From Nitrospirota bacterium (GTDB taxonomy: Bacteria; Nitrospirota; Nitrospiria; Nitrospirales; NS-4): a stretch of 64,000 bases of DNA. Positions 1,266 to 60,418 of this stretch are shown one piece after another. The translations under genes were made by a program, and so were the position numbers. Where the stretch lies: NCBI GenBank assembly GCA_005877815.1, contig VBOG01000107.1, positions 51,437-115,436 on the forward strand. The letters are read 5' to 3'. The notes beneath the pieces are model-generated. The model saw only the letters and a list, made by a program, of their open reading frames with translations, ran no database searches and was not told the origin of the DNA. Each line of letters opens with the position of its first letter. Within the stretch, counting starts at the first letter, position 1.

Positions 1266-1439
1266 CCTGTCTCCTCTCGATAAGGGGAGCCTGAAGGTTT
1301 TTCGGCCGCGTGAATTCTGTGGTTATTCTATCTTTCGTACTCTCAGGTGTCAAGCGACTGAATGCGTTGCTTCCATCGCTAGACGCGGGGGGGAAGATCC
1401 CCGTTTTACTATACTTAAGTAGTAACTCCAGACCATTCG

Positions 1440-1469
1440 TTGACACGCTGACAACGGCACGTTTACAAT
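1440..1469 (+). promoter_or_regulatory. sigma70-like promoter for nadK
   Basis: TTGACA (1440-1445), 18 bp spacer, TACAAT (1464-1469); ATG at 1478. Confidence 0.6.
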
Positions 1470-1477
1470 GGCGCCAC

Positions 1478-3708: not shown

Positions 3709-3736
3709 GGGTAGATGGCGTGTCCCACGCGGATGA

Positions 3737-10472: not shown

Positions 10473-12353
10473 CTATCGCGTCCGTCTCGCCTTGGTCAGT
10501 GAGAACGCACCGATGGGCCCGTCCGGGTCTAAGGACGGCAGAATGACGGGGACCTGTTCCTTACCCAACTCCGCAGCGCTCGATGCCACGTGCGCACGCA
10601 GGTAGGCGAACAACTCGCCGACATCCACCCAGCCGTTATCGTTCATATCGGCCTGCCCCCGGATTCCTTTGAGGAATTGATACGTGAAGAGGCCATGCTG
10701 CCCCGCTTCCCAGGGAAGGGAAGGCCCGGGACTCGGGGACGACGCGATCAGAACGTTGCGGCCTTTTGTTCGCAGACCGGGCGCCTCCCAGAGGAGGCCG
10801 GCTGGTCCCGCCTGTCCAGTACCTTTCACCGTGTTAAATGCCACATCGGCAAGCAGAAGGTTCAACCGTGAAGGAATCCTGTTCAAGACCTCTTGAAGTC
10901 GCGTGAGTGAATAGCCACGGGGCGCGCTCTCTGGTGCGCCGGTGTCGTATGCCAAAATCGACATCTCGTGATTCGGGGCATTGAGCAAACCACTTCCCAC
11001 GAGATACACCAGCACGATTCCCGATGACTTGGCCTTTCGCGGCAGCCAATCTTCGAAGGTACTTTCAATGTCCGCCAATAATGCGCGATCATCGGTCAGC
11101 ACACGAACGTTTTCCGCCGGGAAGCCGGCAAGAGCCGTCAAGTGCTTCCCGACGATTTCGGCGTCGCGTTTCGCGAATTTCATTCGCGGCACCCCCTCGT
11201 CCCGATAGCTGCCGATACCGATCACGACGGCATACGAGGTGCGCCGTTCAAATCCCTGAGGCCGCGGAGGCACTTGGTCCACGTCGACTGAGAGCACCTC
11301 CAGCGATTCGGACGGTGCGTCCTTGACACCCGGCTGCACCATTGCCACGAATCGTTTTCGCGTCGACACTCCAAAACCTCCGGCTTCCGTAATCTGCACC
11401 ACCAACTCTGCTTGTTGATCGGCAAGAGATGCCGACAGGGTCGAGGAGATCGTGACCTGTTTCTTTTCGCCCGGCTGGATGTCGCCCAAAAATGTGGGCG
11501 AAGTGAATTCTTTGACCAATGCGGCCGTGCCCGAGAGAACGGCCGCGACACCTCGAGCGACCCCTGGGCCGCTGTTGGCGACTTCCAGCCGAATGAGGAC
11601 CTTTTCTCCTCCTTCAAGGATCTGGTTATGGTTTTCATCTTCCAATGACGCTCGGAAGCTCAGGGTCGGGGATTCGGCACTACTGCGCGGTTGAGCAGCG
11701 GCACCCGCCGCCAACTCTTGCCGCGTTCGAAGCCGGATCGCGGCATCCCTGATCCTGACCGCTTGCGTCAGACTCTCAACGACACGGTCTGAGAGTTTCT
11801 CTATCGCCTCGGTCACCGGCAACATAATACCTTGGACTCTGCACTCGGTGCCGTCCGTACGCGCCGTCCATTTCCCCTCGGCCTTGATGACGTCGTTGAA
11901 CAAACTCTTGCCTTCCGTGTCCGAAACACTGATTCGCAAGCGGATGAGGACCTTGAGCGGATATTCCCCAATTTCTCTTCTGGGAATATTGAGATTGATC
12001 TCGGACGTCTCCAGCACCGCGCTCAATACGGCATCCGCGGGCTCCTTGGCCGCCGTCCCTTCAAACGTTTTCTCGAAGACCTGCGCAGCGTCAGCCTTCA
12101 CTTGTTCTGCCAGCCGCTCGCCGAGAGGAATGGCCTGCGGCACATTGCAAGAGTCCCGGTAATACATCTGCGCTTGTTTCAAGGCGTCGGGAAGGTCGAG
12201 ACGCACCGACAGAGGAATGCTCGGCGTCTGAGGTTCGCTGGATTTGAATTCGAGCCGTGGAAAGACAACTTTTTGACCGCACCCCGATGTCGCGCCGAGA
12301 AGCAGAAGGAGTAGTGCCAGAGTTGGCCTTACCAGGCGATACGAACAGGACAA
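10473..12353 (-). CDS. lipoprotein with Ig/CARDB-like middle region and C-terminal caspase (peptidase C14)-like domain, probably inactive
   Basis: Lipobox-like ATSGC; YAVVIGIGSY, AKRDAE, HGLFTYQFLKGIRGQADMNDNGWVDVGEL, QVP; start uncertain (TTG 12353 after GAGGAG). Confidence 0.75.
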   Translation of the reverse strand: MSCSYRLVRPTLALLLLLLGATSGCGQKVVFPRLEFKSSEPQTPSIPLSVRLDLPDALKQAQMYYRDSCNVPQAIPLGERLAEQVKADAAQVFEKTFEGTAAKEPADAVLSAVLETSEINLNIPRREIGEYPLKVLIRLRISVSDTEGKSLFNDVIKAEGKWTARTDGTECRVQGIMLPVTEAIEKLSDRVVESLTQAVRIRDAAIRLRTRQELAAGAAAQPRSSAESPTLSFRASLEDENHNQILEGGEKVLIRLEVANSGPGVARGVAAVLSGTAALVKEFTSPTFLGDIQPGEKKQVTISSTLSASLADQQAELVVQITEAGGFGVSTRKRFVAMVQPGVKDAPSESLEVLSVDVDQVPPRPQGFERRTSYAVVIGIGSYRDEGVPRMKFAKRDAEIVGKHLTALAGFPAENVRVLTDDRALLADIESTFEDWLPRKAKSSGIVLVYLVGSGLLNAPNHEMSILAYDTGAPESAPRGYSLTRLQEVLNRIPSRLNLLLADVAFNTVKGTGQAGPAGLLWEAPGLRTKGRNVLIASSPSPGPSLPWEAGQHGLFTYQFLKGIRGQADMNDNGWVDVGELFAYLRAHVASSAAELGKEQVPVILPSLDPDGPIGAFSLTKARRTR

Positions 12354-12484
12354 TACCACACTCCTCGACTGTGCAATCCAGGCATCCAACCGAAGCCTTA
12401 TACAGCATGTGCTCCATGAAGGCAATGCAAACGTGGTGCGCACGAGAGTTGACCGTCTCATCGCGAAGCCGTTAGCATGAGGCG

Positions 12485-13363
12485 ATGCACGCCTCGCGCT
12501 CGCATGGCCATCACTGGCTTCTCCTGACCGATCTCCTCAGACTCCGCAACCAGACAGGCTCGCTGCTCTTGTTGTTTCCCACCCTTTGGGCGCTGGTTAT
12601 CGCCAGCAACGGACGTCCGCCGATGTCCCTGGTTGTCGTGTTTGTCGCCGGTGTCTTTCTGATGCGAAGCGCGGGCGTCGTCATCAATGATTGGTGGGAC
12701 CGCGACCTGGACCGCAATGTGACCCGTACACGCAGTCGCCCGCTGGCATCCGGCGCGCTCCCTCCCCATGTCGCGATAATCGTTTTTGTCGTGTTGCTCA
12801 TCCTGGCTGCAGGGCTTCTGACGAGCCTCAACTTCCTCACGGTCATGCTGGCACCCATCGCCGTCCTGCTCGCGATTGCGTATCCCCTTGCCAAACGCGT
12901 CACCGCCTTGCCTCAGGTGGTCTTGGGAATTGCCTTCGGGTGGGGTGTCATCATGGCATGGACGGCCGTGCGCAATGACCTGTGTTGGATCCCGATCGGA
13001 ATCTTTCTGGCGACAGTCTGTTGGGCGGTGGGATACGATACGATTTACGCTCTTCAAGACATCGGCGATGACATGCGCATCGGCATCCGCTCGACTGCCC
13101 TCCTCTTCGGCCGCCATGTGTGGGTGGCCGTGGCCCTGTCCTTCGCCGTCATGATTGTCATTCTGTCTGTGGTCGTCATCACCTCGGAGATTGGATGGCC
13201 TTTCTACGCGACGCTATTAATTGCCGCATCGGTCTTCGGCCATCAGGCCTGGAGGGTCAAGCAAGGGATTTCGCAGACGGAGGCATTCGGTCTCTTTAAG
13301 CAGCACGCATGGCTCGGCGCCCTGATTCTTGCCGGTATGTGGATCGGCGCTTGGCTGCGCTGA
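12485..13363 (+). CDS. ubiA: 4-hydroxybenzoate polyprenyltransferase
   Basis: NDWWDRDLD, RTRSRPLASG, YDTIYALQDIGDD. Confidence 0.92.
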   Translation: MHASRSHGHHWLLLTDLLRLRNQTGSLLLLFPTLWALVIASNGRPPMSLVVVFVAGVFLMRSAGVVINDWWDRDLDRNVTRTRSRPLASGALPPHVAIIVFVVLLILAAGLLTSLNFLTVMLAPIAVLLAIAYPLAKRVTALPQVVLGIAFGWGVIMAWTAVRNDLCWIPIGIFLATVCWAVGYDTIYALQDIGDDMRIGIRSTALLFGRHVWVAVALSFAVMIVILSVVVITSEIGWPFYATLLIAASVFGHQAWRVKQGISQTEAFGLFKQHAWLGALILAGMWIGAWLR

Positions 13364-46749: not shown

Positions 46750-46778
46750 TTGACCCCCCAAGCACGCTTGTTTAGAAT
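46750..46778 (+). promoter_or_regulatory. sigma70-like promoter of ole/FAS cluster
   Basis: TTGACC, 17 bp, TAGAAT, 48 bp upstream of oleA ATG. Confidence 0.6.
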
Positions 46779-46826: not shown

Positions 46827-47873
46827 ATGAGATATTCGAACGTCTGTATTGAATCAATCGGGTATGAGTTGCCGAAACACATCGTGACTTCGGCGGAGAT
46901 TGAAGCCCGCCTCAGCCCATTGTATGACCGGCTACACCTTCCTTATGGGCGCCTTGAGCTCATGAGTGGCATTCGGGAGCGGCGCTTTTGGGAGAACGGT
47001 ACGAACCCGAGTGATGCCGCGACCATGGCAGGCAAGTACGCCCTGGCCCTGGCCGGTATACCTGGAAGCCAGATCGAGTGCATCCTGAACTGCTCGGTAT
47101 CGCGGGATTTTCTGGAACCTGCAACGGCTGCCCTGGTGCACGCACGGTTAGGCGTAGCCCCGAAAGCCGCCGTCTTCGACATCTCCAATGCCTGCCTCGG
47201 AATGCTCAACGGCATGGTGACGCTCGGCAACATGATCGAATTAGGCCAGGTCAAAAGAGGTCTGCTTGTCGCCGGAGAAAATGGAAAACCGCTGGTTGAA
47301 ACGACCATCCGGCAACTCCTTGCCGACCCGGAGATGACTCGCAAGAAGTTCAAAGATACCTTTGCCTCGCTGACCATTGGGTCCGGCGCCGCAGCGATCG
47401 TCATGACCCACGCCTCCGTCTCGAAGGACCATCACCGCCTCCTCGGCGGCGTCGCGGAGAGCGCAACGGAGCACAATGATCTGTGCCGGGGGAGCGCTGA
47501 TACGGGCCTCGACTCGGACAGCGAACCCGCCATGTCGACCCAGTCGGAGGTGCTGATGAAAAGTGGATGTGCGCTGGCCGGGCGGACGTGGGCGGACTTC
47601 AAACAGGAACTTGGCTGGACAGACGCGGAGGTGACCAGGACGTTCTGCCATCAAGTGGGCGTGGCCCATCGGCGCCTCCTGTTGGAGACCCTGAAGCTTG
47701 ACCCCTCGATCGACTATCCGACGGTCGAGTTTTTGGGGAACATGGGGTCGGCATCGCTGCCCGTCACCATGGCCCTCAGCATCGAGGCCGGCCATGTGCA
47801 CCGCGCGGACAAGCTTGCCCTGCTGGGCATCGGCAGCGGCCTCAATTGCCTGATGTTGGGAGTTGAATGGTAG
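46827..47873 (+). CDS. oleA: OleA head-to-head acyl-CoA condensing thiolase
   Basis: SRDFLEPATA (OleA catalytic Glu region), NACLG, HQVG, GNMGSAS, LGIGSGLNC. Confidence 0.9.
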   Translation: MRYSNVCIESIGYELPKHIVTSAEIEARLSPLYDRLHLPYGRLELMSGIRERRFWENGTNPSDAATMAGKYALALAGIPGSQIECILNCSVSRDFLEPATAALVHARLGVAPKAAVFDISNACLGMLNGMVTLGNMIELGQVKRGLLVAGENGKPLVETTIRQLLADPEMTRKKFKDTFASLTIGSGAAAIVMTHASVSKDHHRLLGGVAESATEHNDLCRGSADTGLDSDSEPAMSTQSEVLMKSGCALAGRTWADFKQELGWTDAEVTRTFCHQVGVAHRRLLLETLKLDPSIDYPTVEFLGNMGSASLPVTMALSIEAGHVHRADKLALLGIGSGLNCLMLGVEW

Positions 47874-48748
47874 CGACGTCTTTTCAAGAGCTGTATCCTT
47901 TTCAATCTCACTACCTGCCGCTCGACGGGTTAAAGTACCACTACCTGGACGAAGGATCGGGAGATCCCCTCATCATGCTGCACGGGAATCCAACCTGGTC
48001 CTTCTACTATCGACGCCTCATCGCAGAATTCCGCAAGACATATCGCGTGATCGCCCCCGATCATATGGGCTGCGGCTTCTCCGACAAACCGCAAACCTAC
48101 GCCTACCGGCTCGCGCAGCACATTGACAATCTCGATGCGCTGCTGCAACACCTGGACCTCAAACGCGTCACCCTGTGTCTTCACGACTGGGGCGGACCGA
48201 TCGGTATGGGATGGGCCCTACGGCATCCCGAACGAATCTCGCGCTTCGTCATCTTCAACACCGCGGCCTTCCCGTCATCACGGATTCCTTTGCGCATCAA
48301 CCTCTGCAAATTGCCGGTTGTCGGCGATCTGGCGATCCGCCGATTGAATGCCTTCGCGGGATTGGCACTCACGATGGCAACGGCCCAGCCCCAGCGCATG
48401 ACCCGCGCGGTCAAGGACGGCTATCTCGCGCCCTATGACAGCTACGCCAACCGCATCGCACACTTGCGGTTCGTGCAAGATATCCCGATGCACTCGGGCC
48501 ATCCGACATATGCGCTGATCAATGACATCGGAAAGGGGCTCGCACGCTTTCGGCAGACGCCGATGCTCATTATTTGGGGCGAACAGGACTGGTGTTTCAC
48601 CCCTGAATTTCTCGAGCGGTGGGTGGAATATTTCCCGCACGCGAAGGTGCGGCGCGTCAGTGATGCCGGCCACTACGTGGTGGAGGATGCCTACGAGCGG
48701 ATCATCCCATGGCTTCACGAATTCCTCGCCGCACACCCTCTGACATGA
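47867..48748 (+). CDS. oleB: OleB beta-lactone decarboxylase (haloalkane dehalogenase-like)
   Basis: HGNPTWSF, HDWGG, GHY; position after oleA. Confidence 0.88.
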   Translation: MVATSFQELYPFQSHYLPLDGLKYHYLDEGSGDPLIMLHGNPTWSFYYRRLIAEFRKTYRVIAPDHMGCGFSDKPQTYAYRLAQHIDNLDALLQHLDLKRVTLCLHDWGGPIGMGWALRHPERISRFVIFNTAAFPSSRIPLRINLCKLPVVGDLAIRRLNAFAGLALTMATAQPQRMTRAVKDGYLAPYDSYANRIAHLRFVQDIPMHSGHPTYALINDIGKGLARFRQTPMLIIWGEQDWCFTPEFLERWVEYFPHAKVRRVSDAGHYVVEDAYERIIPWLHEFLAAHPLT

Positions 48749-50412
48749 TGCCGCTGACATCCTCGGCGGTCAGTCCGGACCTTTTGAACATCGCACGCCA
48801 CCTGCCGGCGATGGCCATGCGCCATCCGGAACAGGATGCCGTCATTCATTCGAAGGACGGCTCTCGCCTGACGTTTCGTCACCTCAATGAAGATGCCGAC
48901 CGGTACGCCCATGGATTAACTCGACTCGGGATCCGCCGAGGCGCTCGAACGCTGGTGATGATTCGTCCCGGTCAGGAGTTCGTCGCGGTGGCTTTCGCCC
49001 TGTTCAAGATGGGCGCGATCTCCGTGCTGTTAGACCCCGGCATGGGACGAACCAGTCTCTTGCGCTGCATCGAGGAGGTGGAACCTCATGCGTTCATCGC
49101 CGTCTCCATGGCGCATGCCGCCCGCCTCCTCCGGCCACGCGCATTCAAGAGCGTGAAGCATTGGGTCACCGTCGGCCCCCGATGGTTCTGGAGTGGGCCC
49201 ACGCTCTCGCAGATCAGGGCACTGGAACGTCAATCGCGCGAGTTCCCTTGCGCCGACACACGAACCGATGAGACCGCGGCGATCCTATTTACCTCCGGCA
49301 GCACGGGGATCCCCAAAGGCGTCGTCTATGAGCACGGCATGTTCGACGCCCAAATCCGTTCGCTCCGCGAGTCTTACGGCATCAGGGAGGGGGAAATTGA
49401 TCTTCCGGCGTTTCCACTCTTCGCCTTGTTCAGCGTGGCAATGGGAATGACGGTTGTGATTCCCGATATGGATTGTTCACGCCCGGCGCGGGTCAACCCC
49501 GAAACGTTCGCCCGGACGGTTTTGGAGTATGGCGTCAATCAATCGTTCGGATCCCCTGCGATCTGGGACCGCGTGGGCCGCTACTGTGCCGGAAGACAAC
49601 ACGTCCTGCCTTCGCTCACCCGCGTTCTCATGGCTGGAGCTCCCGCGCCGCTTCATGTCATCGAACGCCTACGACATATTCTCCCCGAATCCGGAGACGT
49701 GCACACCCCCTACGGCGCAACGGAGGCGCTGCCGGTCTCCTCCATCAGCGGCAGAGACATTCTCGGCGAAACGGCCGAACGAACGCGCGCAGGTGACGGC
49801 ACCTGCGTCGGCAAGATGTGTCCAGGCATCACGCTTCGCATCATTCGCGTCTCGGAGGAACCGATTCCAGCGTGGAACGACAGTCTGGCGCTTCCGGCAC
49901 ATGAAATCGGCGAGATCGTCGTGAAGGGTCCTGTCGTCACACGCACGTACTATCGGAATGACCGGGCCACGTCGCTGGCAAAAATCAAGGACGGCAATGC
50001 CTGGTGGCACCGCATGGGAGACGTCGGCTATCTGGATGACCATGGACGGCTCTGGTTCTGCGGGCGCAAGGCCGATCGCGTGGACACCGCAGTCGAAACC
50101 TTGTACACCGAGCCATGCGAAGCCATTTTCAACCAGCATCCGGCGGTGTCGCGCTCGGCGCTTGTCGGGGTCGGCCGCGAGAAAACTCGACGACCGGTCA
50201 TGATCATCGAGCCGCGCCGGGGCCATTTTCCGCGAAGTCCCGAGACCGCCGTGCGATTCAGTCATGAACTCCGGGAGCTCGCGAAGGGCCATTCGGTGAC
50301 GTCGTCTATCACCGCGTTTCTGTTTCATCCAAACTTCCCCGTGGATGTTCGCCACAATGTCAAAATCTCCCGGGACATGCTGGCGCTCTGGGCTGAGGAG
50401 CGAATGCGGTGA
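48745..50412 (+). CDS. oleC: OleC beta-lactone synthetase (AMP-dependent ligase)
   Basis: FTSGSTGIPKG, YGATE, HRMGDVG, PVDVRHNVKI. Confidence 0.9.
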   Translation: MMPLTSSAVSPDLLNIARHLPAMAMRHPEQDAVIHSKDGSRLTFRHLNEDADRYAHGLTRLGIRRGARTLVMIRPGQEFVAVAFALFKMGAISVLLDPGMGRTSLLRCIEEVEPHAFIAVSMAHAARLLRPRAFKSVKHWVTVGPRWFWSGPTLSQIRALERQSREFPCADTRTDETAAILFTSGSTGIPKGVVYEHGMFDAQIRSLRESYGIREGEIDLPAFPLFALFSVAMGMTVVIPDMDCSRPARVNPETFARTVLEYGVNQSFGSPAIWDRVGRYCAGRQHVLPSLTRVLMAGAPAPLHVIERLRHILPESGDVHTPYGATEALPVSSISGRDILGETAERTRAGDGTCVGKMCPGITLRIIRVSEEPIPAWNDSLALPAHEIGEIVVKGPVVTRTYYRNDRATSLAKIKDGNAWWHRMGDVGYLDDHGRLWFCGRKADRVDTAVETLYTEPCEAIFNQHPAVSRSALVGVGREKTRRPVMIIEPRRGHFPRSPETAVRFSHELRELAKGHSVTSSITAFLFHPNFPVDVRHNVKISRDMLALWAEERMR

Positions 50413-51410
50413 AGGCCCTCGTCACCGGAGGCGGGGGGTTCCTGGGCCGGCATATCGTCTCCAAGTTGCTGGCACGAGGCGATTCGGTCCGAGTGCTGGG
50501 GCGTCAGGCATACTCCGATCTGGAAGCGCGGGGTGTCGAAACAATCCGGGCCGATCTGCAGAATGCGACGGCAGTTGAGCAGGCCTGCCGTGGAATGGAC
50601 ATGGTCTTCCATGCGGGGGCCCGGACCGCCTATTGGGGGGCCTGGCGCTCGTTCTACGGAACGAACGTTCTGGGGACGCGAAATGTTCTCGAAGGATGCC
50701 GGAAGGGCGCTGTGCGCAAACTGATTTATACCAGCACGCCGAGCGTCGTGTGGGCCCACGGAGGCCTTGAGGGAATGGACGAGTCGGTCCCCTATCCTGA
50801 TCGGTATACGTGCCCCTATCCCGCTACCAAGGCCATCGCCGAACGGCTGGTCTTAGAGGGGAACGGCGTCGGTGGTCTCCTGACCGTCTCCCTGCGGCCC
50901 CATCTGATTTTCGGTCCGGGCGACCCACATCTGTTCCCTCGGATCATCGAGCGCGCGTGTCGGGGGCAATTGGTGCAAGTCGGAGACGGCACGAACAAGG
51001 TGGATGTCGTCTATGTGGAGAACGCGGCCGACGCCCACCTGCTCGCCGCCGACAAGCTGGGGGCTGGTTCGCCAGTCAATGGTCATGCATATTTCATTTC
51101 ACAGGGAGTGCCCGTGGTGCTCTGGGCATGGATTAATGGGATACTGGAGCGGATGCAGTTCCCTCACGTCGGCCGGAAAGTGTCGTACGGAATGGCCAGG
51201 GCTGTTGGAGCGGCGATGGAGATCGCCTATACTGTGTTACCGCTGCCTGGGGAACCGAGAATGACGCGCTTCCTGGCAGACCAATTGGCCACCTCGCATT
51301 ACTTCGACATTTCCCGCGCGCGCAAGGACCTCGGCTACGAACCTCGGATCAGCACCGAGGACGGATTGGACCGAACGATCAAGGCGCTCCAAAGTGGTTC
51401 TCTAAATTGA
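50409..51410 (+). CDS. oleD: OleD 2-alkyl-3-oxoalkanoate reductase (extended SDR)
   Basis: TGGGGFLG, YTSTPSV, YPATK, LRPHLIFGPGD. Confidence 0.88.
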   Translation: MKALVTGGGGFLGRHIVSKLLARGDSVRVLGRQAYSDLEARGVETIRADLQNATAVEQACRGMDMVFHAGARTAYWGAWRSFYGTNVLGTRNVLEGCRKGAVRKLIYTSTPSVVWAHGGLEGMDESVPYPDRYTCPYPATKAIAERLVLEGNGVGGLLTVSLRPHLIFGPGDPHLFPRIIERACRGQLVQVGDGTNKVDVVYVENAADAHLLAADKLGAGSPVNGHAYFISQGVPVVLWAWINGILERMQFPHVGRKVSYGMARAVGAAMEIAYTVLPLPGEPRMTRFLADQLATSHYFDISRARKDLGYEPRISTEDGLDRTIKALQSGSLN

Positions 51411-51415
51411 CTGCC

Positions 51416-52978
51416 ATGGCCGACATCGTCTTAATCAATCCGCGTTTCGAGATTTCCTTCTGGGGTCTGGAACATGTCCTGCCGATCATGGGGAAAAGAG
51501 CCAACATGCCGGTGGGCAGCTTGCCGCTGCTGGCGGCTTTGACGCCGGCGCCGCACCAGGTGACGCTGATCGATGAGAATGTCGAGGCCATCGACTTCGA
51601 GCGCGTGGCCCGGGCGGACATTGTCGGGCTGACCGGGCAGATCGTGCAGCGTTTTCGCATGCGCGAGATCCTGGCCGAGCTCAAGGATCGCGGTGCCTGC
51701 ACGATCGTGGGCGGGTCATGGGTCAGCGTGCAGGAGGACTACTTTGAAGGCCTCGCCGACGTCATTTTCGTGGGCGAGGCGGATGAGAGCTGGCCGCGCT
51801 TCTTGCGGGAGTGGGAACAGGGCCGGCACCAGGGTCGCTACCAGCAAGCCCAGCAGACCGACATGAGTACCGTGCCGACGCCGCGCTTCGACCTCTTGAA
51901 GATGCAGCACTACCTGTTCGGCAGCGTGCAGTTCTCACGCGGCTGTCCCTTCAAGTGCGAGTTCTGCGATATCCCGATCAACTTCGGCCACCGTCCGCGG
52001 CTCAAAACTTCCGCCCAGATGATGGCCGAGCTGGATGCCCTGCGCGCCCAGAACACCGACATCGTCTTCATCGTCGATGACAACCTGATCGGCAACAAGA
52101 AAGCCATCAAGGTGCTGCTCCGCGACCTGATTGACTACCAGCGAGACCACGGGTATTTCTTTCACTTCTTCACCGACACGTCCCTGGACCTGGCCGAGGA
52201 TGCCGAGCTGATGGACCTGATGGCCCAGGCCAATATCGTGGCTGTCTTCATCGGCATCGAAAGTCCGAACGAGGACTCCTTGCGTGAGACCAAGAAGTTT
52301 CAGAACGTCCGTGCCGGCGGCTCGATGCTGGAAAAGGTCTGGCGCATCCAGGAGGCGGGCATGGAGGTGATGTCCGGCATGATCCTGGGTTTCGACCACG
52401 ACAACGCCGGCATCTTCGAGGCCCAGCTCGAATTCATGACGCGGGCCCGCATCGTGGATACTTCGGTCGGCATGCTCTATGCCATCCCGAAGACGCCTTT
52501 GCATGCCCGCCTGGCCGCCGAAGGACGCCTCGACCCGCAAGACGATTCCGAATTCGGCACCAATGCCATCCCCTTGAAGATGAGCCGTGAAGAGCTGCGG
52601 GACGGCTACATCAAGGTGATCAGCGATCTGTACGAGCCCAAGGCGTTCTTCGGCAGGCTGGAAGATCTGGTGCTGCATGGCCACCTGGACTATGGCAGGG
52701 CCGTGAGACGCTACTGGCGCGGCCATCCCCGGGCCTGGTTCAAGACCCAGGCCAAGAACCTGGTCCGTTCTCTTGTGCTGTACCAGCGTTTGATGTGGGG
52801 CATTCCGGAAGGTTCGCTGCGCCGCGAATACCGCCGCCGACTCGGCCGCCTTTTACAGTTCAGCCGCAATCCCAGTCTTTTCCTGATGTATGTCATCAAA
52901 TGTGGCTTGCACTACCACCAGTACACCCGTGCCAGCCAAATGGCTGCTGGCGTGAGCCGGCCGTTGATAGGGGCCTAA
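51416..52978 (+). CDS. cobalamin-binding radical SAM protein (HpnP-like/DUF4070 type)
   Basis: N-terminal B12-binding domain (LIDENVE, IVGG, FVGEAD), RGCPFKCEFC, VDDNLIGN, FIGIES, GFDHD. Confidence 0.88.
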   Translation: MADIVLINPRFEISFWGLEHVLPIMGKRANMPVGSLPLLAALTPAPHQVTLIDENVEAIDFERVARADIVGLTGQIVQRFRMREILAELKDRGACTIVGGSWVSVQEDYFEGLADVIFVGEADESWPRFLREWEQGRHQGRYQQAQQTDMSTVPTPRFDLLKMQHYLFGSVQFSRGCPFKCEFCDIPINFGHRPRLKTSAQMMAELDALRAQNTDIVFIVDDNLIGNKKAIKVLLRDLIDYQRDHGYFFHFFTDTSLDLAEDAELMDLMAQANIVAVFIGIESPNEDSLRETKKFQNVRAGGSMLEKVWRIQEAGMEVMSGMILGFDHDNAGIFEAQLEFMTRARIVDTSVGMLYAIPKTPLHARLAAEGRLDPQDDSEFGTNAIPLKMSREELRDGYIKVISDLYEPKAFFGRLEDLVLHGHLDYGRAVRRYWRGHPRAWFKTQAKNLVRSLVLYQRLMWGIPEGSLRREYRRRLGRLLQFSRNPSLFLMYVIKCGLHYHQYTRASQMAAGVSRPLIGA

Positions 52979-52986
52979 CTCTCGTC

Positions 52987-54222
52987 ATGATGGATAAGCA
53001 CCGGCGCATCGTCATCACCGGCATCGGCCTCACGGCCCCGAATGGCAATACGTTGGACGCCTTTCGCGCGAGTCTGTTGAAGGGCGTTTCGGGCGTCGTT
53101 CCGTTTGAGACCCGTTATATGGGGAAGGTGCTCGCCGGCGTCTGCACATACGATCCGTTGAAGTATCAGATGAAGAAAGAAGTGCGGCGCGGGACGCGGG
53201 CGGGATCCATCGCCATCTATTGTTCCCGTGAAGCCATGGCGGATTCCAAGCTGGATTTCGTATCGTTCGACAAAAGTCGCGTCGGCGTCTATCTCGGCAT
53301 CACGGAGCACGGCAACGTCGAGACCGAGAACGAAATCTACAACATCAGCCAATTCAACTACGATACCAAGTTCTGGTCGCATCACCACAATCCCCGAACC
53401 GTCGCCAATTCTTCGGCGGGCGAGGTGACATTGAACATGGGCATCACCGGTCCGCACTATACGATCGGTGCCGCCTGCGCCGCGGGGAATGCCGGCGTGA
53501 TCCAGGGGGCGCAGATGCTGCTGCTCGGCGAGGTCGACATCGCACTGGCCGGCGGCGTCTCCGAGAGCATCCATACATTCGGGATCTTCGCCAGCTTCGC
53601 CAGCCAGGGAGCGTTGGCATCCCATCCCGACCCCGCCAAGGCCTCGCGGCCCTTTGATCGCGACCGGAACGGCATCGTCTGCTCGGAAGGCGGCTGTGTG
53701 TACGTGCTGGAGCGCCTCGACCATGCCGAAGCGCGGGGCGCCCAAATCTATGGAGAGATCATCGGCTATCACATCAATTCCGACGCGACGGATTTTGTGC
53801 TTCCCAATGCGGAACGGCACATCGAGTGCATGCGGACTGCGCTCAAGAAAGCCGGGCTCGGCCCGCAGGACATTGACGTTGTCAGCACGCATGCCACGGC
53901 CACCCCGCTGGGGGATATCCAGGAATGCATCGCGCTCCGGACGGTCTTTGCCGACTGCCTGAATACGCACTTCAACAATACGAAGAGCTTCATTGGTCAT
54001 GCCATGGGCGCGGCCGGTGCCTTGGAGCTGGCGGGCAATCTCCCCTCCTTCGACGACGGCCTGATCCATCACACCATCAATGTGGACCATCTCGACCCAG
54101 ACTGTGCGCTGGACAATTTGGTCTTGCACGAGCCGAGGCGGGTGCGGCATGTCACCTACGTACTGAACAATTCCTCCGGCATGCTGGGAATCAACTCCGT
54201 GGTGGTTGTAAAACGCGTGTAA
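52987..54222 (+). CDS. fabF: beta-ketoacyl-ACP synthase (FabF/FabB family)
   Basis: IVITGIG, GAACAAG, SRPFDRDRNG, THATAT, IGHAMGAAG (Cys-His-His). Confidence 0.9.
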   Translation: MMDKHRRIVITGIGLTAPNGNTLDAFRASLLKGVSGVVPFETRYMGKVLAGVCTYDPLKYQMKKEVRRGTRAGSIAIYCSREAMADSKLDFVSFDKSRVGVYLGITEHGNVETENEIYNISQFNYDTKFWSHHHNPRTVANSSAGEVTLNMGITGPHYTIGAACAAGNAGVIQGAQMLLLGEVDIALAGGVSESIHTFGIFASFASQGALASHPDPAKASRPFDRDRNGIVCSEGGCVYVLERLDHAEARGAQIYGEIIGYHINSDATDFVLPNAERHIECMRTALKKAGLGPQDIDVVSTHATATPLGDIQECIALRTVFADCLNTHFNNTKSFIGHAMGAAGALELAGNLPSFDDGLIHHTINVDHLDPDCALDNLVLHEPRRVRHVTYVLNNSSGMLGINSVVVVKRV

Positions 54223-54278
54223 ATCGTGTATTTTTTGACGCCGATTGTGACCAGCGAAAACGTCGGGGAAGTCGACTG

Positions 54279-54530
54279 ATGACCAATGACCAGATCAAGC
54301 ACGCGGTGCTGCAGATTATCGCTGTCATCGCACCGGATGAAGATCTGAGTCACGTGAAGAGCGATGTCGCGTTGAGGGATCAGTTGGAACTGGATTCCAT
54401 GGATTTCCTCGACATCGTGATGGAATTGCGCAAGCGGTACGGGGTCGAGGTGCCGGAAGGCGATTATGGACAACTCGCCAGCCTCGACAGTTGCGTCATC
54501 TATCTCGCCCCGAAGCTCAAAGACAAGTAA
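54279..54530 (+). CDS. acyl carrier protein
   Basis: 83 aa acidic, LELDSMDFLDIVMELRKRYGV. Confidence 0.92.
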   Translation: MTNDQIKHAVLQIIAVIAPDEDLSHVKSDVALRDQLELDSMDFLDIVMELRKRYGVEVPEGDYGQLASLDSCVIYLAPKLKDK

Positions 54531-54603
54531 TCGTCTCTCGCTCCGTCTTTCCGACGTTCTCTCAGCTGTGAGCGCCCACGAATTTCGGTATAATCCAGCC
54601 GCC

Positions 54604-56004
54604 ATGGCCCAGACTCACTACGATGTCATCATCATCGGCGCGGGGATGTCCGGCATGGCGGCAGGCATCAGGCTGGCATATTTCGACAAGTCCGTCTGCG
54701 TGTTGGAGCGGCACTATGCCGCGGGTGGGCTCAATTCCTTCTACGCATTGGACGGGCATCAATTCGATGTCGGCCTTCATGCCATGACGAATTACGTCCG
54801 GCCCGGCACGCGCGGCGCTCCCCTCACGAAAATCTTTCGCCAATTGCGCTTGACGCCGGAGGATTTCGGATTGGCGCCGCAGCATCATTCCGAGGTGCGC
54901 TTCCCGGGCAAGACGCTCCGTTTCAACAACGACTTTAGATGTTTCGTCCAGGACGTCGTCGACAACTTCCCCGCACAGGCTGACCACTTTGTCAGGCTGG
55001 TGAAGCACATCCAGGAATACGACGAACTGGACCTCGAGGCGCCGCCGCGTTCAGGGAGAGCGGTCGTCTCCTCCTTCCTCAGCGACCCTTTGCTGACGGA
55101 CATGATCTTCTGCCCCCTGATGATTTATGGGAATGCTCAGGAGCGCGACATGGAATTCGGCCAGTTCGTCGTGATGTTCAAGAGCATCTTCTGCGAAGGC
55201 CTCGGCCGCCCGCGGGAAGGCGTGCGGCGTATCATCACCGCGCTCCGACGAAAACTACGTGAGGTCGGCGGGACCGTCCGGATGAAATGCGGCGTCCAGG
55301 CACTGAATGCCGAAGGCACGCGGATCACCTCGGTGACCTTGGATACCGGCGAGATCCTCACTGCCAACACGATCCTCTCGTCGGCGGGATATGTGGAAAC
55401 GATGCGCCTCTGCGGAACAGACCATGCCACGCTGGCTCCGATGGAAGGCCGGCTGTCCTTCGTGGAGATTATCTCCATCCTCGACCAGCCGATGAAACAC
55501 CTCGGCCACGACGCCACCATCATCTTTTACAATACCGGCAAGGAGTTTCATTACGAGACGCCGAAGAACCTGGTCGACGCGCGCAGCGGCGTCATCTGCT
55601 GCCCCGACAACTTCCTCTTCGACAAGCCGCTTCCGGAAAGCATGATCCGGCTGACCTGCCTCGCGAACTTCGACGGCTGGAACGCGCTTGACGAACCGGC
55701 CTACCTTCGAGCCAAGACGGAGTGGCTTCCGAAGATCCAGCAGGAAGTGCTACACTTCATCCCCGATTTCAGACACCATGTCGTCTACACCGATTTCTTT
55801 ACGCCGCGGACCATCCAGAAATGGACGGGGCATCTCAATGGCGCAGTGTACGGCGCTCCCGAGAAGCTGAAAACCGGAAAGACTCCCATTGAGAACCTCT
55901 TCATCTGCGGCACAGATCAAGGTTTCCTCGGCATCGTCGGAGCCATGCTGAGCGGCATCTCCATGGCCAATCTTCACGTGTTGAAAAGAGCCCATGCCCG
56001 CTGA
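54604..56004 (+). CDS. phytoene desaturase (CrtI)-like FAD oxidoreductase 1
   Basis: [25 protein letters not shown]...NGAVYG, NLFICG. Confidence 0.85.
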
Positions 56005-57448
56005 CTGGCTGAAAGACGTCAAACACGACTACGACGTGATCGTCATCGGCTCGGGATTGGCGGGCCTGACGGCAGCCAACCGCCTGGCCACCTGCGGCTA
56101 TTCCGTGCTGCTGCTCGAGCACCATTATAATTTCGGCGGCATGGCCACCTGGTTCAAACGCCGGGGCAACCACATCTTCGACATTTCCCTGCATGGCTTT
56201 CCGATCGGCATGGTGAAAACATGCCGCAAGTACTGGTCGGCCGACATCGCCGATTCCATCGTGCAGATCAAGGGCATCCGCTTCGATAACCCGCAGTTCT
56301 CCTTCACCACCACCTTTGACAGGACCGACTTCACCGACAAGCTCGTCACCTATTTCAAGATCCCGCCGGCCACGGTGGAGGCCTTCTTTCAGTTTGCCCG
56401 GAGCATGAATTTCTACGACGATCAGGCGATGACGACTCGCGATCTGTTCCAGAAATACTTTCCCGGCCGTCACGACCTGTGGCGTCTGCTGATGGAACCC
56501 ATCGCGTATGCCAATGGTTCGACGCTCGACGATCCGGCTATCACCTTCGGCATCGTCTTTTCGAATTTCATGAACAAGGGTGTGTACACGTTTCAAGGCG
56601 GCACCGACAAGCTCATCATGAAGATGAAAGCCACGCTGAAGGCCCACGGGGTCGACTTGCGCCACCATGCGCTGGTGGAAAAAGTGCTGATTGAAAAGGA
56701 ACGGGTCGCCGGCGTCGTGTGCAACGGGCGCACGATCCGTGCGAAGGCGGTCCTCTCCAACGCCAACCTGACCGCCACGATTCATTCCCTGGTCGGCGAC
56801 GAGTATTTCGGGTCGGACTTCATCCGGGAAGCCAGAGCCGTCCGGCTGAACAGCAGCAGCTGCCAGGTGTACATGGGGATCCGCAAAGGGGAGACGATCC
56901 CCAACATCGGCGATCTGTTCTTCACCTCCTCCCACCCGGTGTTTGACTCCGAGGCGCTGAACGCCATGGACGTGACCAGCCGCACCTACTCCCTCTACTA
57001 CCCGGACACGCGCCCGGGGTCGGACCGCTACGCCATCGTGTGTTCGACGAACGCCAACTACAGGGATTGGGCCGCGTTGAACGAGGATGCGTACCGACGG
57101 GAAAAAGAGCGGCTCATCGAAGGCGTCGTCGCCACGCTCGAGAAATATCTTCCCGGCGTTCACGGCAAAATCGATCATCTTGAAGCCTCGACGCCCCGCA
57201 CCTTCGAGCACTACACCCGGCATGTCAACGGAGCGTCGTTCGGCACCAAGTTCGAGGGGCTGAAGGTCAGCCAGAATCTTCCCAAACAAATCAGCGGACT
57301 CTTTCATGCAGGATCCGTCGGCATCATCATGTCCGGCTGGCTCGGCGCCATCAACTATGGGGTGATCGTCGCGAACGAGATGGACAAACATCTGCGGCAG
57401 GCCACGGGGTGTATGGTTCAGTCTCCGGCCATGGCGACCCATGAGTAG
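55994..57448 (+). CDS. phytoene desaturase (CrtI)-like FAD oxidoreductase 2
   Basis: [41 protein letters not shown]. Confidence 0.85.
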
Positions 57449-58193
57449 GGCGAGCTTCGACTACAGCAGTCAGACGATCGTCGTGACCGGAGGCACCCGC
57501 GGGATCGGCCGCGCGATTTCCCGGCGGTTCCTCGACGCAGGGGCAACGGTGGTGGCGACCTACACCGCCAACCGCGATGCCGCGGACGAGTTCAAGACGT
57601 CAGCTGGGCCTGCCGCCGACCGGTTGCATCTGAGGAAATTTGAGGTCGAGGATTACGCGCAGGCGAAGGCGTTTTATGCCTATCTCGAAAAAGAACACAA
57701 ACACTTCACCGTGCTGATCAACAACTCGGGCATCCGGAGGGATTCGGTCCTTGCGATGATGCCGCTGGACGACTGGCAAAAGGTGCTGGACGTCAACCTC
57801 ACCGGCGCGTTCAACATGTCCAAGTTGGCCGTCCTGATGTTCATGGCCAATCGGTATGGCCGCATCATCACGATCACGTCCCCCTCAGGACGTTTCGGGT
57901 TCGAGGGGCAGGCCAATTACGCCGCCTCCAAGGCCGGATTGGTCGCGATGACCCGCTCGCTCTCGAAAGAAGTCGCGTCTCGCGGTATCACCGTGAACTG
58001 CGTCTCGCCGGGGCTTATTGACACGGACTTCATCGCGGATCTCCCCGACAAGTTGCGCAAGGAATATCTCGCCGCCATTCCCCTGAAGCGTTTCGGCACC
58101 CCGGACGAAGTGGCGGCCAGCGTGCTCTTCCTTGCATCGCGCGATGCGGACTACATCACCGGCTCGGTCCTCTCGGTTGACGGAGGCATGTAG
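57441..58193 (+). CDS. fabG: 3-oxoacyl-ACP reductase
   Basis: [27 protein letters not shown]. Confidence 0.9.
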
Positions 58194-58670
58194 GTGGCGC
58201 CCCGTGACCACGTCAACGAAGCCCTGGCGCTGATTCCCCATCGCCCGCCGTTTCTTTTTCTCGATGAGATCCTCGAGCGAAGCACCACCCGCATCAAGGC
58301 ACTCAAGACGCTCGATCCTGAGGAACCATACCTGACCGGACATTTTCCCGGCCATCCCATCATGCCTGGCGTCTTGCTGTGCGAGTGTATCTTCCAAGCC
58401 GGGGCGGCACTCCTTTTCGGTCGGGGGACGATCCCATCAGGCACGGTCCCGGTACTGGCGAAAATCCAGAACGCCCGGTTTCGCAGGCCGGTGAGGCCCG
58501 GTGCTCGCCTCGTGATCGAGGCGGAGATTAGCGAAGAAATCGCGAACGCCGTCATTATGAAAGGCGCCATCACGGTTGATGGACACAATGTGCTGCGCAC
58601 CGAGTTCATCGTGACCATGGCATCGCTCGGCGCGCCGCTCGATGAGCCGAGGAACGGGAGCCTGCCATGA
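58194..58670 (+). CDS. fabZ: 3-hydroxyacyl-ACP dehydratase
   Basis: [35 protein letters not shown]. Confidence 0.9.
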
Positions 58671-59470
58671 GCTTTCTCGGGTTGGAGGGCAAAACCATCG
58701 TCGTGTTCGGCGTGGCCAACAAGAAATCGGTGGCCTTCCATATCGGCCAGGTACTGGATGAGGCAGGCGCCAAGGTGGTCTATGTGGTGCGCTCCAAAGA
58801 ACGAAAAGATACGGTGGCCCGGCTGTTGCCGGACGCGGAGATCCACGTCTGCGACGTCGAACGCGAACACGACATTGTGGCCGTGGCGGCGGACATCATG
58901 CCGGCACATCCGGTCATCCATGGGCTCGTGCATTCCATCGCCTTCGCCGACTATCACGGCGGCCTGAAGGCGTTCCATGAGACCGATCGCAAGGCCTTCC
59001 TCCAGTCGGTAGACATCTCCTGCTACTCGCTGATCGCCATCGCCAAGGCCTTCAAATCTCATCTGGCGCCGGACGCCTCGGTGGTCACGATCTCCATCTC
59101 CACAACAAGGATGGCGGCTGAAAACTACGGCTTCATGGGACCCGTCAAGGCGGCGCTCGATTCGACCATCTGTTTTCTCGCCAAGTCCTTCAGCGGCTCC
59201 TCCCATGTGCGCTTCAATTCAGTCAACCCGGGGCTGCTGAAGACGTCGGCGTCAGCGGGCATCCCAGGCTATGCCGATGACTATCTCTACGCCGAACGCC
59301 TGACGCTCCGAAAGAAAGGCGTGACGACCAGGGAAGTCGCACATGCCGCGGCGTTCCTGCTCAGCGAACGCTCGTCGGGCATCAATGCGCAGGGCATCGT
59401 CCTCGATGCGGGGATGTCGGTGAATTACTTCGACAAGGAGCTGATCAAGCGGGCGATGAGGCCTGAGTGA
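58667..59470 (+). CDS. fabI: enoyl-ACP reductase
   Basis: [34 protein letters not shown]. Confidence 0.88.
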
Positions 59471-60418
59471 ATGCGCGGCCTGGCCCTTCTTCTCGTCTTC
59501 GTATCGAGCTTCTTCTATCCCGCCGCACTTCTCTCCGCCGATGATGTGCCACTCGGTTTTCAACCGTGGCAGATTGTTGAGACCAAAACGGGTCACGTCG
59601 TCACCTTCGACGACCTATTGACGCAGGTCAATGGCGCGGACGTCGTCTACCTCGGGGAGGAACACCGGAACGCCGCCCATATCGAGTCTGCGATCAAGGT
59701 TCTTCACGGGCTTGTAGCCCGCCACCGGCGTCCCATTGTGGCGATGGAGATGTTCGGCTGGGACGGCCAGACGACCCTGGATCGCTACCTGAATGACCCG
59801 AAGATGTCCAAGGAAAACTTCATGCATGACGCGCGCTGGAAGGAGAACTGGGGAGGCGACTACTCTGACTACGCGCCACTAGTCAACCTGGCGCGTGACC
59901 GGGGATTACCGCTGCTCGCGTTAAACCCACCGCGACCCCTGGTCCGGCGAGTCGCAAAGGAGGGGCTGGCCAATGTTAAGGACGACTCCGATATGACGCG
60001 GTGGGGCATGCGTGACGAGGTCTTGTACGAAGACGGCGCCTATCATGACATCATTCTCAAACAGCTTCGTTCCTGCCATACGGGCCTTGCCGATGAGGCG
60101 TACCAACGGATCTACCAGGCGTCCGTGTTCCGGGATGAAGGCATGGCGAAGACGATCTCGCAAGCCCTGCATCGACTGTCCGAGGGCGGCGGTCCCATCG
60201 TCAGCTACACGGGGGGAGGCCACATTCAGTACGGCTTACCGGTCCCCAACCGCGTGGCGAGAAAAGAGCGTCGGCCGGTGCGCCAAATCACCGTCTATCT
60301 TCAGGGCTTCGATCCAACGCGGACAGAAGAGATTCACGCGCTCTTGCGGGAAGGCATTGCGGACTACGTCTGGCTGACGCCGCTCAGCACGCACGGCCCT
60401 TCCGGACGGTGCCTGTAA
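59471..60418 (+). CDS. ChaN/Tiki-superfamily exported protein
   Basis: Signal peptide, VVYLGEEH, AMEMF, RDEGMA, GGGHI. Confidence 0.8.
   Translation: MRGLALLLVFVSSFFYPAALLSADDVPLGFQPWQIVETKTGHVVTFDDLLTQVNGADVVYLGEEHRNAAHIESAIKVLHGLVARHRRPIVAMEMFGWDGQTTLDRYLNDPKMSKENFMHDARWKENWGGDYSDYAPLVNLARDRGLPLLALNPPRPLVRRVAKEGLANVKDDSDMTRWGMRDEVLYEDGAYHDIILKQLRSCHTGLADEAYQRIYQASVFRDEGMAKTISQALHRLSEGGGPIVSYTGGGHIQYGLPVPNRVARKERRPVRQITVYLQGFDPTRTEEIHALLREGIADYVWLTPLSTHGPSGRCL

Follow-up and report, generated by a model that had tools for sequence, protein, structure and literature searches.

A 64,000-nucleotide stretch of Nitrospirota DNA (hereafter the window) carries on its forward strand, at positions 46827-59470, 12 co-directional genes in which oleABCD, the gene set of head-to-head olefin synthesis, is joined to genes for a type II fatty acid synthase (FAS), an acyl carrier protein (ACP) and two flavoproteins resembling the carotenoid desaturase CrtI. 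Our analysis suggests that this operon probably makes a long-chain polyene hydrocarbon in an uncultured family of soil Nitrospirales, with the FAS/CrtI half, hereafter called the module (fabF, acp, the two CrtI-like genes, fabG, fabZ and fabI), substituting for the Pfa synthase as the source of polyunsaturated chains. The gene identities, the dedicated fab paralogues, the synteny and the patterns of co-occurrence and complementarity among genomes were all observed directly. The remaining gene of the operon, which codes for a B12-binding radical S-adenosylmethionine protein (hereafter rSAM) and lies between the two halves, would be a recent addition of this lineage.

The operon and its two halves

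The window belongs to a metagenome-assembled genome (MAG) of 2.65 Mb that is 92.9% complete. An earlier note, made from the sequence of the window alone, had listed 12 same-strand genes at these positions, and gene calls combined with Pfam and NCBIfam assignments for each of them confirm that list. The tight spacing it described is borne out as well, since neighbouring genes overlap or abut at all junctions but those of fabF, which is preceded by 8 bp, and of acp, which has the largest gaps, of 56 bp on its upstream and 73 bp on its downstream side. The genes are as follows.

46827-47873 (+): oleA, head-to-head condensing thiolase (ACP_syn_III and ACP_syn_III_C; NF006720)
47867-48748 (+): oleB, alpha/beta-hydrolase of the beta-lactone decarboxylase type (Abhydrolase_1)
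48709-50412 (+): oleC, AMP-dependent beta-lactone synthetase (AMP-binding; NF006754)
50409-51410 (+): oleD, NAD(P)H-dependent 2-alkyl-3-oxoalkanoate reductase (3Beta_HSD; best match NF042422, below its cut-off)
51416-52978 (+): B12-binding rSAM protein, from an ATG start, with an alternative TTG start at 51407 (Radical_SAM, DUF4070 and a weak B12-binding match)
52987-54222 (+): fabF-like ketoacyl-ACP synthase (N- and C-terminal ketoacyl-synt domains)
54279-54530 (+): dedicated ACP (PP-binding, 29.9 bits)
54604-56004 (+): CrtI-like flavoprotein 1, hereafter CrtI1 (Amino_oxidase and NAD_binding_8)
55994-57448 (+): CrtI-like flavoprotein 2, hereafter CrtI2 (Amino_oxidase and FAD_binding_2)
57441-58193 (+): fabG-like ketoacyl-ACP reductase (adh_short_C2, 203.5 bits)
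58194-58670 (+): fabZ-like hydroxyacyl-ACP dehydratase (FabA domain, 86.8 bits)
58667-59470 (+): fabI-like enoyl-ACP reductase (adh_short_C2, 180.9 bits)

The first four genes form a full ole set, contiguous and co-directional, with an order that is identical in the related Nitrospirales loci and in locus L046. OleA scores 441 bits with NF006720 (cut-off 285) and 242 bits with the Xanthomonas OleA-type structures 3row, 3s21 and 4kti, as compared with at most 69.5 bits for FabH. When aligned with 3fk5 it keeps the motifs SRD(F/Y)LEP, NACL, HQV and GN(M/I)G; the residues considered in this comparison were the catalytic Cys, His and Asn together with an additional Glu, to which we assign, as an assumption, the roles they have in Xanthomonas OleA. 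By these features of its sequence the protein classes with OleA and not with FabH. It is 78-82% identical to the OleA of related Nitrospirales clusters, and a single gene of OleA type is present in each of five genomes that were checked.

The other Ole proteins were recognized from their domains and closest family models. OleB matches Abhydrolase_1 with 119.9 bits, its best NCBIfam and PDB matches being haloalkane-dehalogenase-like, and its translation shows an HDWGG elbow. OleC matches AMP-binding with 190 bits and NF006754 with 716.6 bits (cut-off 478), and its best specific matches are two models of olefin beta-lactone synthetases (NF045786, E 9.6e-182). Its homologues align only from residue 17-26 onwards, and the true start of oleC may be the ATG pair near 48745. 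OleD matches 3Beta_HSD with 184 bits and has NF042422 (oxyalk_red_OleD) as its best match, with E 5.7e-113. Searches of the PDB gave no sequence match to OleC at E 1e-30 or better and, for OleB and OleD, no entries named after Ole. As OleB is present, the end product is more likely an olefin than a beta-lactone. The same contiguous oleA-B-C-D order is shared by the OleABCD pathway of Xanthomonas campestris, Shewanella oneidensis and Micrococcus luteus, from which the ole genes of the window differ in sharing an operon with a private FAS. The roles of the individual Ole enzymes have been described previously (PMC7158056; PMC7064751).

The fab genes of the second half are a dedicated second set, as their comparison with the housekeeping copies of the same genome shows, and their functional tie to ole is well supported by the synteny and co-occurrence described below. 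A housekeeping fabH-fabD-fabG-acpP-fabF set lies on a separate contig, C132, and a housekeeping fabZ on contig C70. In NCBIfam searches the cluster FabF reaches 307.5 bits with TIGR03150, against a cut-off of 493.75 that the FabF of C132 passes with 668; the cluster ACP stays at or below 36 bits against cut-offs of at least 66, whereas AcpP of C132 passes with 128.7; and the cluster FabG obtains 273 bits with TIGR01830 (cut-off 297.75), whereas its counterpart on C132 passes with 334.5. The best FabI model gives 178 bits against 370 for the FabI-like protein, and FabZ is a marginal pass (NF000582, 115.2 bits vs 113). The same distinction emerges from pairwise identities, since the fab proteins of the cluster share 34-45% identity with the housekeeping copies and 55-86% with the cluster proteins of other phyla. 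In particular, FabF shares 34% identity with the FabF of C132 and 64-86% with its cluster counterparts in other phyla, FabG is 40% identical to the housekeeping FabG and FabZ 45% to that of C70, while the cluster ACP is 54-91% identical to cluster ACPs elsewhere.

Failing equivalog cut-offs and lying closer to the cluster genes of other phyla than to their own housekeeping copies, these fab genes agree with their description as dedicated in the earlier note. They are not housekeeping-like sole copies, given the second set on C132 and C70; the FabI-like gene alone is single-copy. The term 'complete' that the note applied to this type II FAS is too strong, because fabD, fabH and an ACP synthase are missing from the cluster, with fabD and fabH sitting on C132. 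The FabI-like gene is the sole enoyl-ACP reductase that was found in the window's genome, in which FabK was not found. Within the family this gene follows the cluster: it is present in 15 of 20 genomes and in none of the five genomes of two cluster-less genera (g2 and g3). An ordinary FabI, 31-33% identical, occurs in all 18 genomes of a neighbouring family. Since the cluster-less members of the family are without any FabI, the housekeeping enoyl-ACP reductase of the family must be another enzyme.

Motifs recognized by eye in the translations include the Cys and two His motifs of FabF, YxxxK in FabG, Y-x6-K in the FabI-like protein, an 11-letter motif in FabZ, an N-terminal GxGxxG motif for flavin adenine dinucleotide (FAD) in both flavoproteins and CxxxCxxC in the rSAM protein. 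These motifs are typical of the respective enzymes.

The two flavoproteins are deep paralogues with 24% identity to each other. Neither reaches the cut-off of 238.1 bits for crtI_fam (TIGR02734), CrtI1 scoring 62.6 and CrtI2 82.6 bits, and CrtI2 also matches carot_isom with 111.7 bits, below its cut-off. A search of the PDB with the sequence of CrtI1 returned weak N-terminal matches only. Its structure was then modelled with AlphaFold2 from an alignment of 109 rows, for CrtI1 alone, with a mean confidence (pLDDT) of 89.3. Foldseek comparison of this model gave the carotenoid desaturase 4rep as the best match, with a template-modelling (TM) score of 0.73, followed by 3ka7, CrtI (4dgk) and phytoene desaturase (PDS, 5mog); the matches to 4dgk and 5mog have TM scores of 0.56-0.67 and probability 1.00, and these structural matches show 16-19% identity. 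As modelled, CrtI1 has the fold of carotenoid desaturases. This predicted fold would be shared with CrtI, CrtD and plant PDS, yet no carotenoid genes lie near the pair in the window.

A FastTree phylogeny of CrtI1 and CrtI2, also of 109 rows, separates the two proteins into distinct clades, each with 100% support, that are connected by very long branches. Each clade contains a monophyletic group of Nitrospirota and parallel groups of other phyla, which implies that the pair is ancient and has stayed together while the module spread. Module genes of loci labelled Planctomycetota, Desulfobacterales or Deltaproteobacteria (L012, L024, L035 and L037) nest within the Chloroflexota clade, a position that indicates either transfer across phyla or mis-binning; those of L020 and L024 are nearly identical.

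Distribution of the module and its relation to Pfa

The 11 genes oleABCD-fabF-acp-crtI1-crtI2-fabG-fabZ-fabI form the core of the cluster and are collinear in eight other Nitrospirales loci, some of which are ended by contig ends. To follow the module beyond this order, an alignment of CrtI1 was compared with genome contigs, giving at least 599 pattern matches, and gene neighbourhoods were taken from the best 80 loci, many of them partial. Relatives of CrtI1 are encoded by no fewer than 541 species genomes, which represent at least six phyla. The best 80 loci belong to Nitrospirota, Chloroflexota, Planctomycetota, Verrucomicrobiota, MAGs of Desulfobacterota type and Cloacimonadota, and in them CrtI1 has as neighbours FabF (67 loci), ACP (68), CrtI2 (46), FabG (27), FabZ (37), FabI (31) and an OleA-like protein (30). 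Adjacent oleB, oleC or oleD genes occur in 14 of these loci, namely seven of Nitrospirota, three of Planctomycetota, three of Verrucomicrobiota and one unclassified. Depending on the lineage, the ole genes stand before the module, after it or on both sides, in three gene orders. Synteny of ole and FAS genes recurs across three phyla, namely Nitrospirota, Planctomycetota and Verrucomicrobiota, and is also seen in an unclassified MAG. Tandem duplicates of the OleA-like and FabF genes are seen on a Planctomycetota chromosome (L012, 5817-9818) and in a Dehalococcoidales MAG (L019, 3-5065), with the order fabF-acp-oleA-fabF or oleA-fabF-acp-oleA-fabF.

Within Nitrospirota the distribution is narrow: CrtI1 is present in 14 of 20 genomes of one family and is lacking from three sister families (40 genomes) and from 26 other families (200 genomes); among the last 200 an OleC-like gene was found once (1/200). 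As part of the whole explanation, we consider it probable that the operon is self-contained and has spread horizontally.

The relationship between the module and the Pfa synthase was examined across an even sample of 201 genomes of Planctomycetota, accepting OleC at E 1e-80 or better and PfaA-like proteins at E 1e-100 or better. Of the 71 OleC-positive genomes, 33 have CrtI1 only, 34 a PfaA-like gene only, two have both and two have neither; among the 130 OleC-negative genomes, CrtI1 occurs in one and PfaA in six. Conversely, OleC is present in 35 of the 36 module-positive Planctomycetota. Among cultured strains, Planctomicrobium sp. SH661 is positive for the module and OleC, with PfaA not found among the candidates scored, and Thalassoglobus neptunius KOR42 encodes the CrtI-like protein as well as OleC. 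G119 and G156 are the two OleC-positive genomes in which both the CrtI-like module and a PfaA-like gene are missing, and G119 also has the best match to the window's rSAM protein among planctomycetes, with 51% identity. A comparable pattern is found in 131 genomes of Verrucomicrobiota, 24 of which are OleC-positive: CrtI1 accompanies OleC in 23 of these and the other one has a PfaA over the curated cut-off. OleC is found in 23 of 26 module-positive Verrucomicrobiota, the three CrtI1-positive genomes without it being weak matches (35-39% identity), and in four of five further module-carrying genomes from other phyla. The genome of the window has no PfaA over the cut-off, as TIGR02813 gives at most 113 bits (for FabF, FabD and the cluster FabF) against 1010. 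That the module and PfaA are nearly exclusive of each other in OleC-positive genomes suggests that the module acts as a Pfa-independent supplier of the Ole pathway, and the gene set apparently stands in for Pfa in providing polyunsaturated chains.

Several observations weigh against this proposal. OleC of the window lies below the cut-offs of the olefin beta-lactone synthetase models (605 vs 900 bits for NF045786 and 569 vs 850 for NF045785), and OleD, with 377.6 bits, is under the strict equivalog cut-off of 580 for NF042422. The co-occurrence counts ignore phylogeny and are therefore inflated by kinship, and with no more than two first-look candidates scored for each genome in the PfaA search, some genomes may have been called PfaA-negative in error. 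One module-carrying genome (G268) is without OleC, and in Chloroflexota that combine an OleA-like gene with the module OleC is absent from three of three genomes (G061-G063), with oleB, oleC or oleD within 10 kb in none of 22 loci. The latter pattern implies that the module and OleA can work without the full Ole pathway. Moreover, the product is itself predicted from genes. The flavoprotein chemistry is putative too, as the anammox homologues gave no new fatty acids in Escherichia coli (PMC4790861). In that study by Javidpour et al. (2016) the anammox genes introduced into E. coli yielded no new lipids, and the two anammox CrtI homologues did not make lycopene and could not take the place of CrtI in its synthesis (PMC4790861).

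The Chloroflexota also give ground for a different reading, by which the module would make a separate lipid, for instance a polyunsaturated or conjugated membrane fatty acid or an OleA-only long-chain ketone, and would be no more than co-located or co-regulated with oleBCD. In many Planctomycetota, too, the module is far from oleC on the chromosome, for instance in G064, and the 'ladderane' clusters that antiSMASH-type analysis recognizes in soil Verrucomicrobia are reported as having an unknown function (PMC7298704). We nevertheless consider a separate lipid rather unlikely. The genes from oleA through fabI overlap or abut in Nitrospirales, OleC accompanies the module in nearly all module-positive Planctomycetota and in most such Verrucomicrobiota, the near exclusion of module and PfaA is seen among OleC-positive genomes, and there is one OleA-type gene per genome checked which, in Chloroflexota, adjoins the module. 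The arrangement OleA-like-fabF-acp-crtI1-crtI2-fabG-fabZ-fabI is found in Dehalococcoidia-type MAGs (L013-L031, L034, L036, L038 and L041), in which OleA alone would be expected to yield a keto acid or ketone, so that these bacteria may make a different lipid.

The radical SAM gene and the borders of the operon

The earlier note had treated the rSAM gene as an integral step of the pathway and had envisaged a possibly methylated or cyclised product. Our results do not bear this out, and sequence comparisons class the gene as a lineage-specific insertion that is not part of the core of the cluster. The junction between oleD and fabF is without an rSAM gene in six of the seven related Nitrospirales loci that span it, with gaps of 3-33 bp, the seventh measuring 673 bp. 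An orthologue was found in one of 60 relatives, G002, with 96% nucleotide identity, adjoining an oleD with 89%. This genome, of the same family and 99% complete, has the pair at 1384-3982 of its contig C2 (L100), corresponding to 50410-52984 of the window, with a TetR regulator adjacent. No oleA, oleC, CrtI1 or FabI was found in G002, and its SMC is only 59% identical to that of the window. The high identity of oleD and rSAM despite this distance, together with the absence of those cluster genes, implies that a two-gene piece has moved laterally, in what looks from the sequences like a recent transfer.

The rSAM protein aligns with its homologues from MADIV... onwards. Its best scores to named rSAM families are all far under their cut-offs, including 54.9 bits against 360 for the ladderane model TIGR04072 (rSAM_ladder_B12), and an Atlas search with the protein returned generic B12-rSAM/DUF4070 clusters only. 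Among the best 120 matches listed, the closest other homologues are 65-87% identical, those with names belonging to Gemmataceae, Isosphaeraceae and Planctomycetota. None of 87 loci with rSAM homologues (80 metagenome and seven planctomycete genome loci; 44-68% identical) has an ole, FAS or CrtI-like neighbour, the matches of these types around them being weak and generic (23-31% identity). Conserved neighbours of the homologues in 30 long loci are an alpha/beta hydrolase (11/30), an ABC ATPase (7/30) and a short-chain dehydrogenase/reductase (7/30), a mixture that does not point to any one function.

Unrelated open reading frames are also inserted in other clusters, which shows that the operon tolerates insertions, as with the rSAM gene here. 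Between crtI1 and crtI2, L006 has reading frames of 101 and 285 amino acids (11483-12758) and L055 one of 286 amino acids (11444-12304), and L060 has an insertion between 10929 and 11867.

The arrangement of the genes in the window is not an assembly artefact, since soil sequencing runs contain the stretch almost whole and contigs of one of them bridge both rSAM junctions. Each of 18 soil DNA runs contains at least 67% of the sampled words of the stretch, 16 studies being represented among the 20 runs listed. The bridging contigs, from run X3, span 49500-51922 and 52499-53341, and run X2 covers 14 of 30 bins. A share of 6% of the sampled words is present in two RNA-library runs, whose contigs cover only oleD and the rSAM gene, with identities of approximately 90% and 97%, respectively, and a junction of 81 nt instead of 17. 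Given this divergence in identity and junction, the RNA contigs derive from a G002-like variant, not from the organism of the window, and are uninformative on transcription of its operon.

Some of these data can be read in favour of the rSAM protein as a tailoring enzyme of the pathway, with a methylated or cyclised, ladderane-like polyene hydrocarbon known nowhere else as its product. The gene is intact, retains CxxxCxxC and is packed within 5-8 bp of both neighbours; its junctions recur in independent soil assemblies; and the pair with oleD has been kept in G002 and is bridged by an RNA-library contig of a G002-like variant. One of the best 80 module loci (L037, labelled Deltaproteobacteria) has, after CrtI1, the gene of another B12-rSAM with 28% identity, and the clusters of Desulfotalea and Kuenenia also contain rSAM genes (PMC2649909). 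Such a role is quite unlikely in view of the junctions without the gene, its occurrence in a single relative, the failure with TIGR04072 and the 87 homologue loci that are all unlinked to the pathway; in G002 itself the pair has no link with olefin synthesis, oleA, oleC, CrtI1 and FabI being absent, and the hydrocarbons of Desulfotalea are reported, in the authors' response, to be acyclic (PMC2649909). With the rSAM protein not supported as an integral step, a methylated or cyclised product is likewise unsupported as a general feature of the cluster. Hardly credible is the further alternative that the fab genes are the housekeeping FAS placed beside ole, for even though the genome search gave no enoyl-ACP reductase besides the FabI-like one of the cluster, this identity is rejected by the C132 and C70 copies, by the equivalog scores that separate these from the cluster FabF, ACP, FabG and FabI, and by the lack of FabI in the cluster-less genera g2 and g3.

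The borders of the operon are marked by a divergent smc gene, which lies upstream of oleA and is separated from it by 199 bp, and by a 13th co-directional gene abutting fabI. The features concerned are the following.

46750-46778 (+): sigma-70-like promoter match TTGACC-17-TAGAAT, 10/12 consensus positions
59471-60418 (+): ChaN-like (Cofac_haem_bdg) protein gene (PF04187, 176.8 bits)

The promoter-like site is contained in the gap between smc and oleA; the earlier note had placed the genes behind one sigma70-like promoter. It matches the consensus and no more, a scan of the 14-kb region giving four such sites where chance predicts 3.9. The ChaN-like protein, whose N-terminus resembles a signal peptide, is probably outside the pathway: no homologue of its gene was found beside the related clusters, in which the next gene is on the opposite strand. 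These related Nitrospirales clusters stop at fabI, and their flanks (glutamate synthase, GGDEF and adenylate cyclase genes) are unrelated among genomes and to those of the window.

Proposed pathway and its precedents

From the genes of the operon we infer substrates, flavoprotein chemistry and product along the following lines. FabF, the private ACP, FabG, FabZ and the FabI-like reductase, together with the two CrtI-fold flavoproteins, would build on that ACP a special acyl chain, most likely polyunsaturated, with malonyl loading supplied by the housekeeping FabD. The flavoproteins would introduce double bonds or keep those already made, acting in one of two ways: as dehydrogenases beside a double bond that is in place, like CrtI and UfaD, or as isomerases in the manner of CRTISO. 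OleA would then join two such chains head to head, OleD reduce the 3-keto group, OleC form the beta-lactone and OleB decarboxylate it to a cis-olefin. The most likely product, as predicted from these genes, is a polyunsaturated long-chain olefin of the C31:8 or C31:9 kind. The module would in this way replace, without being orthologous to it, the Pfa synthase by which Ole is supplied in Shewanella, and the laterally acquired rSAM gene would be a recent add-on of the lineage that is dispensable for the pathway in its relatives.

The closest functional precedent is found in marine gamma-proteobacteria, in which Pfa supplies the polyunsaturated chain to OleABCD (PMC6463001). The synthesis of hentriacontanonaene (C31:9) by Pfa and Ole follows the same logic of a dedicated synthase delivering a polyunsaturated chain to OleABCD. 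The machinery differs, Pfa being a multidomain type I polyketide synthase/FAS with FabA-like dehydratase/isomerase domains, whereas the window encodes discrete type II proteins and two FAD enzymes. The same hydrocarbon, n-C31:9, has been described as characteristic of Gemmataceae (PMC7534041).

A cluster comparable to the module, of the 'ladderane' type, was noted by Rattray et al. (2009), who reported for Kuenenia and Desulfotalea psychrophila type II FAS clusters that include rSAM and phytoene-dehydrogenase-like genes, naming in the latter DP1860 and the neighbouring DP2405/DP2406 (PMC2649909). As D. psychrophila contained C31:8 and C31:9 and had no known pathway for polyunsaturated fatty acids (PUFA), a novel anaerobic PUFA route was proposed (PMC2649909). 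Likened by their described gene content, the clusters of Desulfotalea and Kuenenia stuttgartiensis share with the window FabF, ACP, FabZ, FabG and amine-oxidase-type flavoproteins, and differ in having FabI elsewhere and rSAM genes of other families, the rSAM of the window failing TIGR04072; the accessible text does not take up a connection with ole. A role of the module as a Pfa-independent supplier of Ole fits this 2009 hypothesis for C31:8 and C31:9 (PMC2649909). Another precedent comes from furan fatty acid synthesis in Rhodobacter sphaeroides, in which the phytoene-dehydrogenase-like desaturase UfaD exemplifies an FAD enzyme of this superfamily that desaturates a fatty acyl chain beside a double bond already in place (PMC7380195). 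The substrate of UfaD is methylated 18:1 bound in phospholipids, and the enzyme needed O2 in vivo, whereas the enzymes of the window are paired beside an ACP and a FAS.

In view of the 2009 proposal of a PUFA route with FAS and phytoene-dehydrogenase-like genes, and of how widespread the module is, the novelty that the earlier note claimed for the cluster was overstated (PMC2649909). The cluster is of a type known before, albeit uncharacterised, and its occurrence here is the first record for Nitrospirota in the literature searched. As far as its accessible text goes, a paper of 2020 listed ole genes for five phyla, with Nitrospirota not among them (PMC7158056). The literature searched contained no paper joining ole to the FAS/CrtI module and no report of ole in Nitrospirae, although either may appear in the supplementary lists of genomes that accompany PMC7158056 and PMC7064751.

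We regard as improbable the more far-reaching possibility that the type II FAS and the CrtI-fold pair constitute a third bacterial route to polyunsaturated chains, independent of Pfa and of desaturases, whose chain or olefin is further altered by the captured rSAM, for example by C-methylation or ring closure; if true, it would mean a hydrocarbon new to nature and an operon intermediate between plain polyene and ladderane-type chemistry. How C31:8 and C31:9 are made without Pfa has been a standing question since 2009 (PMC2649909), and CrtI-like enzymes acting on acyl-ACP underlie every proposal for ladderane synthesis (PMC2649909; PMC4790861; PMC13459092), the last of these being a 2026 review that offers proposed mechanisms only. 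A minimal, self-contained operon of 11 genes with ole attached provides a defined gene set for reconstitution, and the mutual replacement of PfaA and the module in OleC-positive genomes of two phyla turns the 2009 idea into a sharp, testable prediction. For the Nitrospirota, the operon extends ole genes to a family of soil bacteria, and this bears on the use of polyunsaturated hydrocarbons as biomarkers in soils and sediments.

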